Of a stretch of DNA of 46,984 nucleotides, positions 2,662 through 46,984 are shown piece by piece. Under the pieces are notes generated by a model. The model saw only the letters and a list, made by a program, of their open reading frames with translations. It made no database searches and was not told the DNA's origin. Numbering within the stretch: position 1 is the stretch's first letter; every line of letters starts with the position of its first letter. Source of the stretch: a virus; UHGV virus genome UHGV-0142121; one strand, written 5' to 3'. A program made the position numbers and the translations under genes.

Positions 2662-3050
2662 GCCCCTACCTCACGTAGTTTCTGGTCGATATAACTTTCA
2701 AGTGCGCCATCTGTCGTCTTTTCACGTTTCAAAAACCATCTATCAGACGAAAATTTCCCTCTTTCCCGTTGGTGAATTAAATCGCCAGTGTCACGAATAG
2801 TTCTGGGAACACCCTGCATGACGATTGCAGGAAGAAACATGACAACGATGAGCAAAACCTTCATCCATGCCGAAGTGAAATACTGTGCCTCGAATATCTG
2901 AGATTCTGGCTCGAAGTAATACTCAATTTTTGCTCCAAATCGTTGCTTGCGGTTTGGCAGCATTTTGTTATGCGTAGCCCTGCTTACGGGAATTCGAACG
3001 AATCCTTTCTCACACAAGTTTTCATATTTGTAGATCACGTTAACCCCCAC
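2658..3050 (-). CDS. Hypothetical membrane protein, 130 aa, single central transmembrane helix
   Basis: Hydrophobic segment WMKVLLIVVMFLPAIVM; translationally coupled to neighbours on both sides. Confidence 0.5.
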   Translation of the reverse strand: MGVNVIYKYENLCEKGFVRIPVSRATHNKMLPNRKQRFGAKIEYYFEPESQIFEAQYFTSAWMKVLLIVVMFLPAIVMQGVPRTIRDTGDLIHQRERGKFSSDRWFLKREKTTDGALESYIDQKLREVGA

Positions 3051-3376
3051 TGGCCATCAGCAAACAGCGCTTCGTATTCGGACGCCGGCAGGCGCTGGCC
3101 CTGAATAGAAAAGTTCAGCCAGCCGCGAGTTTGCGGGTTGCCTTTGTCTTCTTCAGTCTCTCCGTTCCAGCGCTTCTCAGCTTCGCGTACCAGGCATTCG
3201 ACAGCTTTCAGGTAGTCCTCAGTTCGGTACCAGCCGTAGTTGACCGAGCCATCAGTTACCGCCCAGGCGACCTTCTTTTGTTCTTCCTGGATAGCACGAA
3301 GCATTTCGTCGCACTTATTCCGGCAGAACTGCAACTGGACACGATCCAGTGTTTTCAAAAAATCAGTAGTCGACAT
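3035..3376 (-). CDS. Hypothetical protein, 113 aa, immediately downstream of repA
   Basis: ORF 11 nt after repA stop on the same strand; no recognisable motif. Confidence 0.5.
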   Translation of the reverse strand: MSTTDFLKTLDRVQLQFCRNKCDEMLRAIQEEQKKVAWAVTDGSVNYGWYRTEDYLKAVECLVREAEKRWNGETEEDKGNPQTRGWLNFSIQGQRLPASEYEALFADGQWGLT

Positions 3377-7694: not shown

Positions 7695-8324
7695 CTATCT
7701 GGCCTTAACTGCTATAGATTTAGCCACGCAGATAACGGGATGAATCAAAATAATTTCGTCAAGATCGATTATCACGCGCTGAGATCTGTCGTTCGGCGCG
7801 TCGAGAAACACTTTGCCATCACGCTTCGACGCTAACATCCTAATAAACGGGTCATTACCTGATTTTGTGACAACGACCACATCTTCCCCGGTCACCGGCT
7901 CGCGGTTTGGGTCTGCGATCAGCACTTCACCGATATGATACGGCGCCGCGACGTCGTTATCGACCATCAGGCCATACAGGGCCGCATCCTGAACATTGAT
8001 ATCAACGTATTCCCGGCAGTTCTGCGCCAGGCCGCTATTAATCATTTCCAGGTTGGGGCCTGTCGCGGTTGAACCGATAACAGGGACTCCACGAAACACA
8101 TCGCCGCCGGCACCAGTTAAGATCCACTCAACAGGACGGCCCAGCTCGCGCGCCAGCTTGATAGCCAGATCTAACGCGGGCATAGCATCACTATTTTCCA
8201 GGTGTGAAAGTCCTGCCCCGGTAATACCGACGCGTTCAGCTACGGCTCTCACCGAGAACTTTGATTTATTTCGCTTCTTCAGCTCTTCACGGCGAGCCTT
8301 CAGCCAATCACCACGTTTTTCCAT
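7695..8324 (-). CDS. cB: Prophage repressor CB (CI-like), 209 aa: N-terminal HTH plus C-terminal LexA/S24-type domain
   Basis: HTH-like segment VRAVAERVGITGAGLSHLE; divergent from a cro-like gene; position matches the N15 immB region. Confidence 0.8.
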   Translation of the reverse strand: MEKRGDWLKARREELKKRNKSKFSVRAVAERVGITGAGLSHLENSDAMPALDLAIKLARELGRPVEWILTGAGGDVFRGVPVIGSTATGPNLEMINSGLAQNCREYVDINVQDAALYGLMVDNDVAAPYHIGEVLIADPNREPVTGEDVVVVTKSGNDPFIRMLASKRDGKVFLDAPNDRSQRVIIDLDEIILIHPVICVAKSIAVKAR

Positions 8325-8345: not shown

Positions 8346-8363
8346 TGTATAGCTAGCTATACA
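8346..8363. promoter_or_regulatory. Operator: perfect 18-bp palindrome TGTATAGCTAGCTATACA; a half-site copy TGTATAGCT recurs at 8415
   Basis: Perfect inverted repeat 22 bp upstream of the cB start, inside the cB/cro divergent intergenic region. Confidence 0.6.
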
Positions 8364-8439: not shown

Positions 8440-8628
8440 ATGAAAACGAAAGAAGCCATAGCCGCCTGCGGCGGCATAAACAAACTCTGCGAACTGCTCG
8501 GCTGTACTCGCGTTGCGATCTACAAATGGGGAGAGGAAGTCCCCGTGCTTCGACAGTACGAGCTGGAGATTAAAACAAATGGCCGACTCAAATCTGACTA
8601 CACACTGCATAAAGAAAAGGATGCCTAA
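8440..8628 (+). CDS. cro: Cro-like repressor, 62 aa
   Basis: Small HTH protein (ELLGCTRVAIYKWG) divergent from cB. Confidence 0.75.
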   Translation: MKTKEAIAACGGINKLCELLGCTRVAIYKWGEEVPVLRQYELEIKTNGRLKSDYTLHKEKDA

Positions 8629-14619: not shown

Positions 14620-14852
14620 TAGACCGGAATGTCGTATTGATAAACACATTGACGCGCCGAACAATGGCGAGCGTCACTGCCGGCGGTGATGGTTTCATTT
14701 CTACCGGCACGTTGTCGTTTGATGTTGGCCTGAATACCAGGACTATTCGTCGCATGCTCGATAGCGCAGTAGAGTCGGGCGAAGCTGAGCGCCGTTCTAA
14801 CGGGCCAGGCAAGCCATACAGCTATCGCATTCGGGAGGCGGCATGCTCTTAG
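14616..14852 (+). CDS. Hypothetical protein, 78 aa
   Basis: ATGA coupling; GGGGGG ribosome-binding site. Confidence 0.4.
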   Translation: MIDRNVVLINTLTRRTMASVTAGGDGFISTGTLSFDVGLNTRTIRRMLDSAVESGEAERRSNGPGKPYSYRIREAACS

Positions 14853-15469
14853 ATCATCGCAGCCACACCGCCGCTGAGCATCGAGATACCTGGAGAACTG
14901 ACCCGCGCATAGCCGCGGGCCTTTTTGAGCTATTGCGCCCTTGCCATATTGATGCGTGCGCCAGCGCTGAAAACCATCTTCTGCCGGAGTTCTTTACCCG
15001 CGAAGATAATTGCCTGCAGCTGGACTGGCTGGCTGAAACAAAACGTCGCGGCGTACTGCCAGCGCTTTATGCCAACCCGCCATTCTCGAAAGAGGACAGC
15101 CGAGCGGCTACTCCGCACAATGGCATGGGAAACTTCTTCCGTAAGGCGCGCGTAGAGGCTGAGCAGGGTGTTTATTCTCAATGGCTTTTCCGTGCACGCC
15201 CTGGGGAGAACTGGTTCCCCTGGCAACTAGCCAGCCGCATCTGGTTTATCGTTGGGCGTGTGGGCTTTGTTGATTCTGCCACAGGGAAAATCGACAACGA
15301 GCAGACAGAGAATCATTGTGTAGCCGAATTTATCCCTGGAGAGCATCCGATTCTTGCGGCTGGGCTACCAATAAACCGTGATGACATCCTGGCCGCAGGC
15401 ATGGCTGCAATCAGTTCTGGAAAATATGGATTGATAACAATCCGATACAAACAACTATCGATGAGATAA
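14843..15469 (+). CDS. Phage Dam-like DNA N6-adenine methyltransferase, 208 aa
   Basis: NPPF catalytic motif (YANPPFS) and overall pattern of the phage N6A methyltransferase family; GGAGG ribosome-binding site. Confidence 0.65.
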   Translation: MLLDHRSHTAAEHRDTWRTDPRIAAGLFELLRPCHIDACASAENHLLPEFFTREDNCLQLDWLAETKRRGVLPALYANPPFSKEDSRAATPHNGMGNFFRKARVEAEQGVYSQWLFRARPGENWFPWQLASRIWFIVGRVGFVDSATGKIDNEQTENHCVAEFIPGEHPILAAGLPINRDDILAAGMAAISSGKYGLITIRYKQLSMR

Positions 15470-15491
15470 ATATTTTCAAAATCAGCTTGGA

Positions 15492-15551
15492 AGATCCCCT
15501 TTCTCTATTTACACTGTATAAATAAACAGTATCATCAAGGAAAGGGGATCT
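15492..15551 (+). promoter_or_regulatory. 12-bp inverted repeat (AGATCCCCTTTC / GAAAGGGGATCT) whose 3' arm is the ribosome-binding site of the downstream gene; 36-nt loop carries a LexA box
   Basis: Perfect 12-bp complementarity; 3' arm ends 2 nt before GTG 15554. Confidence 0.5.
15512..15531. promoter_or_regulatory. LexA (SOS) box CACTGTATAAATAAACAGTA
   Basis: CTGT-N8-ACAG with AT-rich spacer, 17/20 to consensus TACTGTATATATATACAGTA; close to my recollection of the E. coli dinI box; overlaps a TATAAA -10-like element. Confidence 0.6.
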
Positions 15552-15553
15552 CG

Positions 15554-15790
15554 GTGAGAGTAGAAATACTTATTGATCAAGAAGCTAAGGTTTCAGAAAA
15601 AGTAATGGCCGCTCTTTCAGAGCAGGTAAAGCAGCGCCTTTCCCCTCAGTTCGAAAAATTCACATTGCGCATAGCAAAGAGCAGTAGCTCTGCGGTGCAG
15701 ATCACCGGCACTAAATCAGCAGATGAGCACAGTGCAGCTATGGACATCTTACAGAGCGTCTGGGAAGACGATAGCTGGCTGCCGGATTAA
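15554..15790 (+). CDS. DinI-like protein, 78 aa
   Basis: Aligns by eye with E. coli DinI (MRVEI..., ITGTKSADEHSAAMDILQSVWEDDSWL vs IGATKEDKQRISEILQETWESADDWF); preceded by a LexA box. Confidence 0.65.
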   Translation: MRVEILIDQEAKVSEKVMAALSEQVKQRLSPQFEKFTLRIAKSSSSAVQITGTKSADEHSAAMDILQSVWEDDSWLPD

Positions 15791-15817
15791 GTAGCTAGGT
15801 TGCAGGAGGTTGAATTG

Positions 15818-16081
15818 ATGACAGACGACACATGCAGTTCTGATTTACTCGCGTTGAAACTACAGCAGCTAAACGCATTGATTCAGGTTGTTCGTCGGAC
15901 GCTGGATAGCAGTGAAGGCAGCATTTATCTGAACGAGGCCATTAATTTAATGGGCGCTGCTGGAGAGATGACTCAAGACTGTGAAGCCATACGAAAGCGG
16001 ATAGATGTTGAGTTGTATCAGCAGAGCAGCAAGTACTACAGCCTGTATGGCTCTAGCTCTGATCGCCAGTCTGCCGGGTGA
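15818..16081 (+). CDS. Hypothetical protein, 87 aa, co-transcribed with the DinI-like gene (candidate antirepressor)
   Basis: AGGAGG ribosome-binding site 8 nt before ATG 15818; role inferred from SOS context only. Confidence 0.4.
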   Translation: MTDDTCSSDLLALKLQQLNALIQVVRRTLDSSEGSIYLNEAINLMGAAGEMTQDCEAIRKRIDVELYQQSSKYYSLYGSSSDRQSAG

Positions 16082-16168
16082 TCCAGATGCTTTGATATGT
16101 CCTATTTCCCAGCCTGTCGATGGCGGATAGGTTGGATATTCCAGGCGTGTTGTGGCGACGCGGATAAA

Positions 16169-16186
16169 TTGGGACCATGGTCCCAA
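16169..16186. repeat. sopC-like palindrome TTGGGACCATGGTCCCAA (perfect)
   Basis: Perfect 18-bp palindrome just upstream of the putative late promoter. Confidence 0.75.
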
Positions 16187-16194
16187 CCTGGAGC

Positions 16195-16283
16195 TTGCAA
16201 AAACTTCACAAAAAAATTAAACTTTTTCTAAGTTGGGTTTTCTGTAACCAGCTTATTCTAACCGCCTTCATGGCGGTTTTTTT
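16195..16283 (+). promoter_or_regulatory. Putative late promoter (TTGCAA ... TAAACT) plus short leader ending in an intrinsic terminator (16261-16283)
   Basis: Promoter-like hexamers followed about 40 nt later by hairpin ACCGCC-TTCAT-GGCGGT and seven T, upstream of the methyltransferase-lysis operon; architecture resembles Q-dependent late promoters. Confidence 0.35.
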
Positions 16284-16419
16284 GTGCCTTGAAAATGGGC
16301 GCTGCAGCATGTGTGACCATGCCACAGCTTTCAGCCCATGCCGCGGGACAGGGTGAAACAAGGCCCATTGCTGATGCGCAACAGCAAAACGAGCCTATCA
16401 AAAAAGGCTGATAAACACC

Positions 16420-17481
16420 ATGGAAAACACTGTAAATATAAACAGTGCCGTTCTTGTGCGTGCTGATACTCTGGCATACATAAAAACTCTCCCGGACAAC
16501 AGTATCGATGCCATCATCACCGACCCGCCCTACTACAAAGTAAAGGCGGCATCGTGGGATAACCAATGGCCGACGGCTGTTGATTATCTGGCATGGCTCG
16601 ATGAGTGCTTGGCGGAATTCTGGCGGGTGCTGAAGCCGGCTGGCTCTCTGTACGTATTCTGCGGTCCTAAGCTGTCATCTGACACAGAACTGCTGATAGG
16701 CGAGCGGTTCAACGTGCTAAACCATATCATCTGGGCCAAACCGAGCGGTCGTTGGAACGGCTGCCGGAAAGAGGATTTGAGATCGTATTTCCCGGCGACT
16801 GAGCACATTGTGTTTGCTGAACATTATGGCTCTGAGGGATTCGCAAAAGGTAATGCCGGGTATGCGACGAAGTGCCGGGAACTGAAAAGCCAGGTCTTTG
16901 CGCCGTTGATTGAATACTTCCGAACTACCCGGCAGCGCTTGGGCATTTCGGCTGCAGAGATCAACGCGGCGACGGGAACCCAAATGTGCAGCCACTGGTT
17001 TAGTTCAAGCCAATGGCAACTGCCCAGCGAAAAACAATACCAGGCTCTTCAGGCGTTGTTTAACCGGGTAGCGAAAGAGAAGCAAACCTCTGGCTTACTG
17101 TCCGACCACGCCGCGCTGGAAGCGGAATACAACGAGTTATCGGAACAGTATTCAGAACTGGTAAAGCAGTACAGCGATTTGCGTGAGCAGTACGAAAACC
17201 TGCGGCGCCCATTCAGGGTAACAAAGGATGTACCGCATACGAACGTCTGGACGTACCCACCAGTTCAGCATTATCCCGGTAAACATCCATGTGAAAAGCC
17301 GATAGAGATGATGATCGATATTATCTCGGCCAGTACTCGACCTGGCGACCTGGTAGCCGACTTCTTCATGGGTTCGGGTGCAACGGTTAAAGCAGCTATG
17401 CAGCTGGGCCGGCGTGCTATCGGCGTTGAGCTGGAAGAGGAGCGCTTCTTACAGACTGTCTCAGAAATTACAGAACTATAA
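16420..17481 (+). CDS. DNA methyltransferase, 353 aa, first gene of the late operon
   Basis: DPPY catalytic motif (IITDPPYY) near the N-terminus and AdoMet-binding FFMGSGAT near the C-terminus. Confidence 0.75.
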   Translation: MENTVNINSAVLVRADTLAYIKTLPDNSIDAIITDPPYYKVKAASWDNQWPTAVDYLAWLDECLAEFWRVLKPAGSLYVFCGPKLSSDTELLIGERFNVLNHIIWAKPSGRWNGCRKEDLRSYFPATEHIVFAEHYGSEGFAKGNAGYATKCRELKSQVFAPLIEYFRTTRQRLGISAAEINAATGTQMCSHWFSSSQWQLPSEKQYQALQALFNRVAKEKQTSGLLSDHAALEAEYNELSEQYSELVKQYSDLREQYENLRRPFRVTKDVPHTNVWTYPPVQHYPGKHPCEKPIEMMIDIISASTRPGDLVADFFMGSGATVKAAMQLGRRAIGVELEEERFLQTVSEITEL

Positions 17482-46448: not shown

Positions 46449-46478
46449 GCGTGGACGTAAAAGCCAGAACTCAATGAA

Positions 46479-46508
46479 AGAGCCACCGCGAGGTGGCTCT
46501 TTCTCTTC
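46479..46508 (+). terminator. Hairpin after the GNAT gene (terminator-like)
   Basis: 9-bp stem AGAGCCACC/GGTGGCTCT with GCGA loop, followed by TTCTCTTC. Confidence 0.4.
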
Positions 46509-46930: not shown

Positions 46931-46984
46931 TAACAGAACACATTATTAAATATACGCGCGTATATTTAATAATGTGTTCTGTTA
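46931..46984. repeat. Hairpin telomere, right end: 54-nt perfect palindrome (apex between 46957 and 46958)
   Basis: Reverse complement of 46931-46957 equals 46958-46984; shares the 40-nt core with the left-end palindrome, outer 7 nt differ. Confidence 0.85.

Follow-up and report, generated by a model that had tools for sequence, protein, structure and literature searches.

The 46,984-nucleotide virus genome UHGV-0142121, hereafter called the window when its whole length is meant, contains a putative SOS operon in which a LexA box is followed by a gene for a DinI homologue and by a gene for a small protein of an antirepressor family (Table 1). The Shine-Dalgarno (SD) sequence of dinI is complementary to a sequence on the other side of the LexA box, here called the anti-SD, and this hairpin complementarity has apparently been maintained in evolution, with arms that co-vary in a clade-specific manner among related elements. 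If the candidate promoter P1 is the one used, the anti-SD is predicted to be the promoter spacer itself. On balance, we favor the interpretation that the region is an SOS-controlled induction operon of a plasmid-prophage of the N15/PY54 type, equipped with a guard against read-through transcription.

The two arms, AGATCCCCTTTC and GAAAGGGGATCT, form a perfect inverted repeat of 12 base pairs (bp) with a loop of 36 nucleotides (nt). The loop contains the LexA box CACTGTATAAATAAACAGTA, which has the core CTGT-N8-ACAG and agrees with the E. coli consensus TACTGTATATATATACAGTA at 17 of 20 positions. A near-consensus LexA box within the loop of a perfect repeat had been proposed in a first-pass annotation of the sequence and its coordinates were confirmed, as was the claim that the 3' arm is the ribosome-binding site of the downstream gene, the GTG codon of which is located at position 15554, two nucleotides after the arm. 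The position of this start codon is backed by a swap between GTG and ATG at the identical site in two of the relatives described below, L015 and L016. The arms lengthened to 29 nt with 76% complementarity in the repeat search, an effect of the palindromic nature of the LexA box. Across the 47-kb window, 4 sites were found to hold a perfect inverted repeat with arms of 12 bp or more and a loop no longer than 60 nt, as compared to 0.155 in shuffled sequences, and these corresponded to the two telomere ends, a terminator-like hairpin at positions 46476-46503 and the dinI repeat. The motif CTGT-N8-ACAG was present 3 times in the window, with an expectation of 0.41.

It had also been suggested that transcripts reading through from the upstream gene would occlude the ribosome-binding site, whereas transcripts started in the loop would be free for translation. 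Partition-function folding agreed with this suggestion in that the predicted probability of the SD being unpaired was 0.01 in the read-through RNA as compared to 0.70 and 0.76 in the RNAs from the two candidate start sites. The read-through RNA at positions 15470-15600 was predicted to form an outer stem of 13 bp at -35.5 kcal/mol (z = -4.34, with 0 of 200 shuffles being equal), within which the palindrome of the LexA box formed an inner stem. No significant structure was predicted for the loop-started RNA at positions 15522-15600 (z = -1.0). A search of positions 15200-16500 with the Rfam 15 covariance models gave only two sub-threshold chance matches, on the minus strand (E 0.3-0.4).

Relatives were collected by means of the antirepressor-family protein of 87 amino acids (aa), because DNA searches gave no close relatives: a megablast search with the 1-kb region had no match among 50,697 phage records, and plasmid records matched at the methylase end only. 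No relative was found in a peptide-pattern scan of 100,044 representative genomes. Homologues of the 87-aa protein pointed to 28 further loci in viral contigs and public assemblies, all of which contained dinI and a LexA box. Together with phage PY54 and the window, these loci provided 20 distinct upstream sequences, representing about six clades. The gene for the Dam-family methyltransferase was located immediately 5' of dinI in PY54 and in the fetched relatives, with the exception of L031, for which the contig is too short to judge.

Each of the 20 sequences contained a helix of 7-16 bp (Watson-Crick and G·U pairs) between a pyrimidine-rich tract 5' of the box and its own SD. The 3' arm of the helix ended 2-7 nt ahead of the start codon and covered the SD in all six clades, although the arms themselves were highly divergent. 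The 5' and 3' arms were TCTCCCTCTA and TAGAGGGAGA in L008, TCCTCCTGTTAA and TTAATGGGAGGA in L005, and CCCTCCG and CGGAGGG in L011, while those in L021, CCCCTCTC and GAGAGGGG, differed from those in the window by a compensatory double change. The arms in PY54, TTTTATCCAT and ATGGATAAAA, made up a perfect 10-bp repeat that was A/T-rich and not SD-like. Averaged over the 20 sequences, the predicted probability of an unpaired SD was 0.13 in the read-through RNA versus 0.53 and 0.56 in the loop-started RNAs, and the difference had the same direction in all 20.

We placed the greatest weight on the tests that do not depend on an alignment, namely the comparison of cognate and non-cognate duplex energies and the exact permutation test. 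The cognate duplexes had a mean energy of -18.4 kcal/mol, as compared to -11.8 kcal/mol (standard deviation 3.2) for arms paired between different clades, and a mean z of -2.75 relative to dinucleotide shuffles. With one representative for each of the six clades, the true pairing was the best of all 720 permutations, and with nine representatives 8 of 362,880 permutations were equally good. RNAalifold recovered both the outer and the inner stem from a MAFFT alignment, in the columns of which 86.7% of the cells were paired (1 of 500 shuffles was as high). Changes on both sides of a pair were observed in 14 cells, with 6.8 expected (3 of 500 shuffles), and the MAFFT column count further gave 24 one-sided changes, all of which yielded U·G pairs with the G kept in the SD arm. 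Covariation by column was only modest, which we ascribe to the low complexity of the arms and to a shift of the helix from clade to clade.

The repeat could also act as DNA, either by binding a dimeric protein of the phage or the host next to the LexA box or by forming a cruciform and thereby modulating the promoter. It is a perfect palindrome in the clade of the window, in L008 and L022, and in PY54, with both strands equally stable, and it brackets a promoter. However, the arm sequences are wholly different between clades while the complementarity is retained, and in clade D (L004-L007) the repeat in the DNA covers only 5-8 bp, whereas U·G pairs extend the helix in the plus-strand RNA to 12-16 bp. 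For L007, the duplex energy was -22.7 kcal/mol on the plus strand versus -9.3 kcal/mol on the minus strand. Furthermore, a separation of 36 bp between half-sites is unusual for a helix-turn-helix dimer, and copies of the arm sequence elsewhere in the window, or in the operator region between the CB-like repressor gene and cro, do not exceed chance. The arms are also unlike the palindrome between CB and cro in sequence, and the idea of a DNA operator was rejected on these grounds; we regard a role at the DNA level as very unlikely. A minus-strand gene with an SD formed by the complementary strand of the 5' arm was likewise dismissed, as inspection of the sequence revealed only a TTG-started frame of about 22 codons.

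Two candidate promoters were predicted around the LexA box. The -35-like hexamer of P1 was present as TTGGAA, TTGGAT, TTTGAA, or TTGATA over the six clades, with diverging flanks, and its distance to the -10 hexamer TACACT was fixed at 17 nt, except for 18 nt in PY54 (TTGATA...TAGACT). Apart from TAGACT in PY54, the -10 hexamer was invariant, and its A2 and T6 were kept in all relatives. The same arrangement is found in the annotated promoter p95 of phage 186, the -10 hexamer of which is located on the first 6 nt of the LexA box. The alternative promoter P2, the 16-nt spacer of which is the core of the LexA box, was the only promoter-like site picked up by a consensus scan of positions 14800-16600. 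It is the weaker of the two, and T6 of its -10 hexamer is missing in most of the other clades, which leaves P1 as the more uniformly conserved candidate; the sequence of the P1 spacer itself changes between clades.

The LexA box is close to the consensus and overlaps both the -10 hexamer of P1 and the spacer of P2, as expected of an SOS operon, and its core, CTGTATA[ACT]ATA[ACT]ACAG, was conserved in all 20 distinct sequences. Judging from the sequence, LexA presumably binds at positions 15512-15531. The 5' arm is located inside the P1 spacer, and SOS transcripts should therefore lack the arm, while transcripts reading through from the Dam gene should carry it. The first-pass annotation had placed the promoter inside the loop. 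This agrees with the start predicted at about 15522 but probably does not apply to the promoter as a whole, since the -35 hexamer TTGGAA abuts the 5' arm; the logic of the proposal holds for this start and also for P2.

Table 1. Features of the putative SOS operon and of the adjacent gene in UHGV-0142121
Feature	Position	Strand	Basis
Gene for Dam-family DNA adenine methyltransferase	14843..15469	+	Pfam PF05869 Dam, E 9.2e-20
P1 candidate, -35 hexamer TTGGAA	15487..15492	+	conserved motif and spacing; prediction
5' arm, anti-Shine-Dalgarno, within the P1 spacer and 5' of both candidate starts	15492..15503	+	sequence, repeat search
Alternative promoter P2, TTTACA-16-TATCAT	15508..15535	+	consensus scan, 10/12; start predicted at ~15542, within the 3' arm
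P1 candidate, -10 hexamer TACACT, overlapping the LexA box at its left end	15510..15515	+	conserved; start predicted at ~15522
LexA (SOS) box CACTGTATAAATAAACAGTA	15512..15531	+	consensus match, core conserved among relatives
3' arm, dinI Shine-Dalgarno region, ends 2 nt ahead of GTG	15540..15551	+	sequence
dinI homologue, 78 aa, GTG start	15554..15790	+	Pfam DinI, E 1.9e-15; PHROG 189, E 1.3e-19
Shine-Dalgarno AGGAGG of the antirepressor gene, independent	15804..15809	+	sequence
antC-like gene (AntA(PY54)/AntC(N15) family), 87 aa, ATG 15818	15818..16081	+	tblastn, PHROG, hhalign

If transcription started 5' of position 15492, with LexA serving as a roadblock or acting on another promoter, the hairpin would dampen DinI translation constitutively and would not tell one transcript from another. 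Both promoters are known only as consensus predictions, a constitutive stem that sequesters the SD is present in the leader of IS200 tnpA (PMC4513863), and in clade D poor accessibility of the SD is predicted even when the 5' arm is missing, all of which could be reconciled with such damping. Yet no promoter-like site was found on the plus strand 5' of the arm, at positions 14800-15500, the arm is bracketed by conserved -35 and -10 hexamers at a fixed spacing, and LexA boxes normally overlap their own promoter, as exemplified by p95 of phage 186. Constitutive damping thus appears quite improbable.

The Dam gene is the last gene of a co-oriented early block and ends directly 5' of the repeat; its transcription is presumed to be the source of the RNA reading through into the operon. 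A terminator scan identified no terminator-like site between the Dam stop codon and the repeat. The repeat itself does not resemble an intrinsic terminator either: the loop is 36 nt long, the stem is followed by CGGTGAGAG with no U-tract, and the scan was silent. An unlikely but conceivable alternative is that the hairpin serves the early transcript, as a 3' stabilizer, an RNase III site or a terminator or pause site, and that its overlap with the SD is incidental. This would fit the long structure (arms of 29 nt at 76%, with outer and inner stem) at the end of the early block, the terminator-like palindromes before the LexA box in the Gifsy prophages (PMC3121763) and the hairpin in phiKO2. 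It would not account for a 3' arm that covers the SD at 2-7 nt from the start codon in six clades, which is not needed by a hairpin that forms a transcript end, nor for G residues that stay fixed in the SD arm, with C and U replacing each other in the 5' arm.

In the read-through guard that we favor, LexA would be bound at positions 15512-15531 in the lysogen, where it overlaps the -10 hexamer of P1 and fills the spacer of P2, and the operon would therefore be silent. DNA damage would lead to cleavage of LexA and to a transcription start in the loop, at about position 15522 or 15542. Since the resulting mRNA would lack the 5' arm, the SD of dinI would be free, and both DinI and the antirepressor would be made. 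By analogy with N15 and PY54/P840, the antirepressor would then inactivate the CB-type repressor encoded at positions 7695-8324. RNA that reads through from the early genes would carry the anti-SD at positions 15492-15503, which would pair with positions 15540-15551 and block initiation at dinI. With the anti-SD on read-through RNA only, the operon would be translated according to the origin of the transcript.

We infer from these features that read-through occurs, that transcription starts at one of the predicted sites and that occlusion lowers the synthesis of DinI; a secondary consequence for the antirepressor, the SD of which is not occluded, may follow. What the phage gains might be, for example, an SOS operon that is blind to early transcription in the decision between lysis and lysogeny. 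The most far-reaching version, a "transcript-origin filter" in which the SOS operon is translated only off its own promoter, so that early read-through cannot sabotage lysogeny, is put forward tentatively.

Several observations weigh against a read-through guard. The 20 sequences are related, and statistics calculated for each of them are therefore not independent; several single relatives did not differ significantly from shuffles (z of -1.0 to -1.8), and with all 20 sequences taken together, the asymmetry between the strands did not reach significance (p = 0.13). When the partner was slid by -1 column, 90.1% of the cells were paired, which is no worse than in the true register, because the arms, a pyrimidine tract and a purine-rich SD, are of low complexity. 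The SD in clade D was predicted to be poorly accessible (0.08-0.31) even in the loop-started RNA. No anti-SD pairing was observed in phiKO2, and that in N15 was borderline (z of -1.8 for one start codon and -0.6 for the other). Finally, the hairpin directly occludes the SD of dinI only, and the antC-like gene has a strong SD of its own. No C-rich, G-poor tract for the loading of Rho was found in dinI, where the maximum C/G ratio was 1.25. With a guard on the SD of dinI only, no general coupling between the two genes and no Rho tract, protection of the antirepressor is left unexplained.

The statistical points might be taken to mean that the complementarity is fortuitous, a pyrimidine-rich spacer that happens to meet a purine-rich SD without any function. 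The low complexity of the arms, the equal score of the slid control and the non-significant relatives are in line with this, as is a 10-bp match including U·G pairs in PSP3 that was within chance (z = -1.0). The results of the permutation tests (1 in 720 and 8 in 362,880) argue otherwise, as do the perfect 12-bp pairing in the window, where 0.155 repeats of this kind would be expected in 47 kb, and the perfect repeat of 10 bp in PY54, where the sequence is A/T-rich and not SD-like (TTTTATCCAT/ATGGATAAAA). We consider it highly improbable that the pairing is fortuitous. No significant anti-SD pairing was identified in 186, PSP3, SEN1, Fels-2, MLG42, or ST13-OXA48phi12.1 (z of -1.0 to +1.3), and the notion that an anti-SD is a general rule for LexA-controlled operons with antirepressor and DinI genes was rejected; the arrangement is specific to the dinI-antA clade.

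The first-pass annotation had singled out the dual transcriptional and translational logic of the region. Comparative evidence supports this logic for dinI, but it does not directly extend to antC, the SD of which is not covered by the hairpin. A GGAGG-type SD for antC was located 27-43 nt 3' of the dinI stop codon in every relative. Translational coupling, or a second sequestration that covers the SD of the antirepressor gene, was rejected as a general feature, as it was seen only in PY54 (z = -2.4), with z ranging from -0.2 to +1.6 in the others. In PY54 (L002), the sequence CCTCCCC at positions 2931-2937, which follows the dinI stop codon directly, can pair with GGGGAGG, the SD of antA at positions 2969-2975, with a predicted duplex energy of -18.1 kcal/mol, and there is no equivalent in the window or in the other clades. 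Based on the sequence, this second pair would couple the translation of antA to that of dinI and, if translation depends on the origin of the transcript, would extend the filter to the antirepressor. A block of dinI translation may also reduce the output of the antirepressor, via polarity or decay of the mRNA. Alternatively, the dosage of DinI may itself be what must be controlled.

The identification of the 78-aa product as a DinI homologue was upheld. It matched Pfam PF06183 over residues 15-76 with 57.4 bits (cut-off 24.2) and PHROG 189, which is labeled "RecA filament binding protein DinI", and it ends in ...SVWEDDSWLPD, in agreement with the acidic C-terminal helix of the family. The gap between the dinI stop codon and the next gene is 27 nt and contains the strong AGGAGG motif that had been noted before, here confirmed at positions 15804-15809.

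The 87-aa product, previously described as an unknown, turned out to be 55% identical (tblastn, E 3e-9) to the AntA anti-repressor of PY54 and vB_YenS_P840. It matched PHROG 10889, "anti-repressor", with an E value of 6.3e-33 and, more weakly (E 1.1e-10), PHROG 6301, the family of the N15 open reading frame (ORF) discussed below. A profile of the 87-aa family was aligned with the ORFs behind the LexA boxes of N15 and phiKO2 at an hhalign probability of 92.5% (E 4.9e-7), and a pairwise BLASTP search with the 87-aa protein gave no match in N15. By homology, the 87-aa protein is a member of the AntA/AntC-type antirepressor family. Either this protein or the DinI-like protein had been suggested as the induction switch; of the two, the former is the candidate, with DinI in an accessory role, as in Gifsy (PMC3121763). 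It was also noted that an identical 87-aa protein is recorded in Citrobacter freundii assemblies (55 contigs, several of them about 48-49 kb long), where it is annotated as a hypothetical protein, as are the cluster relatives in Citrobacter and Salmonella. The host of the element is likely Citrobacter, and public Citrobacter records could now list the hypothetical protein of 87 aa as a member of the AntA/AntC family of antirepressors.

Passages in PMC3121763 and PMC4488713 describe AntC of N15 as an antirepressor under LexA control, which targets the prophage repressor and is needed for induction. Within the right arm of N15 (13 kb), CTGT-N8-ACAG occurs only once, directly before an unannotated ORF of 75 codons (L003:6605-6832), and this box, CTGTGTTTATATACAG, is located at a place equivalent to that of the box in the window. 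The ORF matched PHROG 6301 (E 1.4e-26) and PHROG 10889 (E 1.2e-8), the reciprocal of the matches of the window protein. Although the databases list it as uncharacterized, we infer from its LexA box and from secondary citations that this ORF is antC. The two operons belong to the same group of phages and share the gp47 homologue on the 5' side, the late methylase region on the 3' side, the LexA box before the operon, the homologous small protein and the CB-type repressor. They differ in that N15 lacks both dinI and a Dam gene in the interval from gp47 to the box, and in the low identity of the proteins (about 25%).

PY54 and P840 resemble the window, with Dam, DinI (ORF56), and antA in the same order, which are annotated as such in PY54, DinI proteins that are 48-49% identical, and a LexA box bracketed by the perfect 10-bp repeat, which ends 6 nt before the dinI ATG. 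What sets PY54 apart, besides its entirely different arms and the second pair at the dinI stop codon and the antA SD, is a gene for a HicB-like antitoxin on the opposite strand after antA. When carried on a plasmid, antA of P840 completely prevents lysogenization by PY54 (PMC10612081). We found no mention of the LexA box or of the repeat in the papers on PY54 and P840 that were consulted.

The prophages Gifsy-1 through Gifsy-3 of Salmonella contain LexA-controlled operons with dinI, an antirepressor gene (gfoA, gftA, or gfhA), and irsA (Lemire, Figueroa-Bossi and Bossi 2011, PMC3121763). As predicted for the window, LexA controls an operon outside the immunity region in which dinI comes first and a small antirepressor second. 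The Gifsy repressor is not cleaved and the operon is insulated from upstream transcription, both of which may also hold for the window. In contrast to the window, the Gifsy prophages have terminator-like palindromes before the LexA box and no anti-SD/SD pair that brackets it, they are integrated lambdoid prophages rather than telomere phages, and irsA is the third gene. Neither a homologue of irsA, nor any third gene before the late-promoter region, nor a terminator-like site before the box was identified in the window. The relationship of the window operon to the Gifsy type is one of analogy, not of membership.

The tum gene of 186 and the tumA-tumB genes of PSP3 also resemble the window, in having a LexA box over the -10 hexamer (p95, annotated in NC_001317), an antirepressor with a DinI-like moiety, and an operon 3' of a co-oriented early gene, there encoding the replicase A. 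They are unlike the window in that the gene order is reversed or the parts are fused, and in that the anti-SD pairing is not significant.

Sequestration of translation signals in the insertion sequence IS10 is reportedly aimed at transcripts from outside promoters, and a related control of read-through is present in IS50. A passage in PMC13181058, citing Davis, Simons and Kleckner 1985, states that the translation signals of the IS10 transposase are sequestered in an RNA structure. In IS10 and, by prediction, in the window, sequence 5' of the native start pairs with the translation initiation region, so that native transcripts are favored; the 5' arm is likewise located 5' of the predicted starts at about 15522 and 15542, with no terminator after the Dam gene. 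The IS10 case concerns a transposase gene and was shown experimentally, there is no sequence relationship between the two, and the window case is a prediction from sequence in which a promoter under repressor control holds the anti-SD in its spacer, within the SOS operon of a prophage. IS200 combines a terminator that counters impinging transcription with a stem that sequesters the SD (PMC4513863). In phiKO2 and Gifsy, the same need is seemingly met by terminator-like hairpins before the box.

The window as a whole is a complete linear plasmid-prophage of the N15/phiKO2/PY54 type. Parts of it are about 75% identical at the nucleotide level to phiKO2-like Klebsiella phages, and homologues of CB, Cro, Q, the exonuclease, and gp47 are encoded in the same order as in N15. 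The ends, at positions 1-54 and 46931-46984, are perfect palindromes of 54 bp with a CGCG center and a core, TATACGCGCGTATA, that resembles telRL of N15, while the outer halves of the two differ from each other. These are probably hairpin telomeres that were read around during assembly, which would place the true ends 27 nt in from each side. The CB-like repressor, encoded at positions 7695-8324 on the minus strand, is 38% identical to CB of N15. Its Pfam matches were restricted to helix-turn-helix families, and Peptidase_S24 was not among them at E <= 0.01, although the absence of a profile match is not proof that the protein is not cleaved. These matches are consistent with a non-cleavable repressor that needs an antirepressor, without proving it. 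A perfect palindrome of 18 bp, TGTATAGCTAGCTATACA, is located at positions 8346-8363 between this gene and cro (8440-8628), and is likely an operator for the repressor, with no relation to the arms of the hairpin at dinI.

Several further sequence elements were noted in the vicinity of the operon. A strong terminator-like hairpin at positions 14902-14919, CCCGCGCATAGCCGCGGG followed by CCTTTTTGAG, with 6 G-C pairs, is located about 60 nt into the Dam-family ORF, in the portion that matches Pfam. Another perfect 18-bp palindrome, TTGGGACCATGGTCCCAA, at positions 16169-16186, separates the antirepressor gene from the late-promoter terminator (16260-16278). The equivalent position is annotated in phiKO2 as a "putative plasmid partitioning site" (GTGCGACCACGGTCGCAC), PY54 has a palindrome of the form GGGACC...GGTCCC directly 3' of antA, and the palindrome in the window is probably a centromere site of the SopB type.

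A second LexA-like box, CACTGTAAATATAAACAGTG, at positions 16428-16447, coincides with codons 3-9 of the gene for an N6_N4 DNA methylase (16420-17481), which is the first gene beyond the region with the late promoter and the terminator. In 15 diverse loci, among them phiKO2 and PY54, the nucleotide sequence of this box did not vary even at third codon positions, the exceptions being one change from GTA to GTG in L005 and the use of AAA or AAT at one codon. The codons directly after the box showed synonymous variation. The invariance suggests that the DNA or RNA, rather than the protein, is the target of selection, and the box may possibly confer LexA control on the late genes or act as a roadblock.

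In the relatives, a hot spot for cargo genes is located between the genes for the antirepressor and the late methylase. These include genes for an IS605-family TnpB (OrfB_IS605/Cas12f-like) in L012 (3653-4834) and L025 (3781-4962), genes for HicA/HicB in L022-L024 (2779-3422), with HicB alone in L025 (2631-3065), and genes for RelE(Gp49)/HTH toxin-antitoxin pairs on the opposite strand in L027-L029 (about 2775-3364; 2320-2909 in L029). None of these cargo genes is present in the window.

A module with dinI and an antirepressor gene under LexA control is already known in kind, being annotated in PY54 and comparable to that of Gifsy, and an anti-SD guard is a variant, by analogy, of a mechanism known from insertion sequences. 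The co-varying anti-SD in a promoter spacer has apparently not been described for these phages, as far as the searchable literature shows. LexA-controlled antirepressors are a common route of induction in prophages such as 186, N15, and Gifsy, and the problem of keeping such operons silent 3' of strongly transcribed early genes has so far been answered only by terminators. The apparent solution in this clade is to make the first gene untranslatable on foreign transcripts by means of an anti-SD in the promoter spacer. The finding is relevant to the insulation of prophage SOS switches; it is of moderate importance and leaves the paradigm unchanged. If correct, it would provide a simple and portable design rule for promoter-specific translation, and it would flag the dosage of DinI as a quantity that the phage controls with care. 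It would also explain how SOS-driven and early-driven expression are kept separate in these plasmid-prophages, which occur in assemblies of Citrobacter, Kluyvera, Salmonella, and Yersinia. Should translation indeed be filtered by the origin of the transcript, the anti-SD would represent a general and evolvable alternative to terminators for the insulation of nested operons in compact phage genomes.

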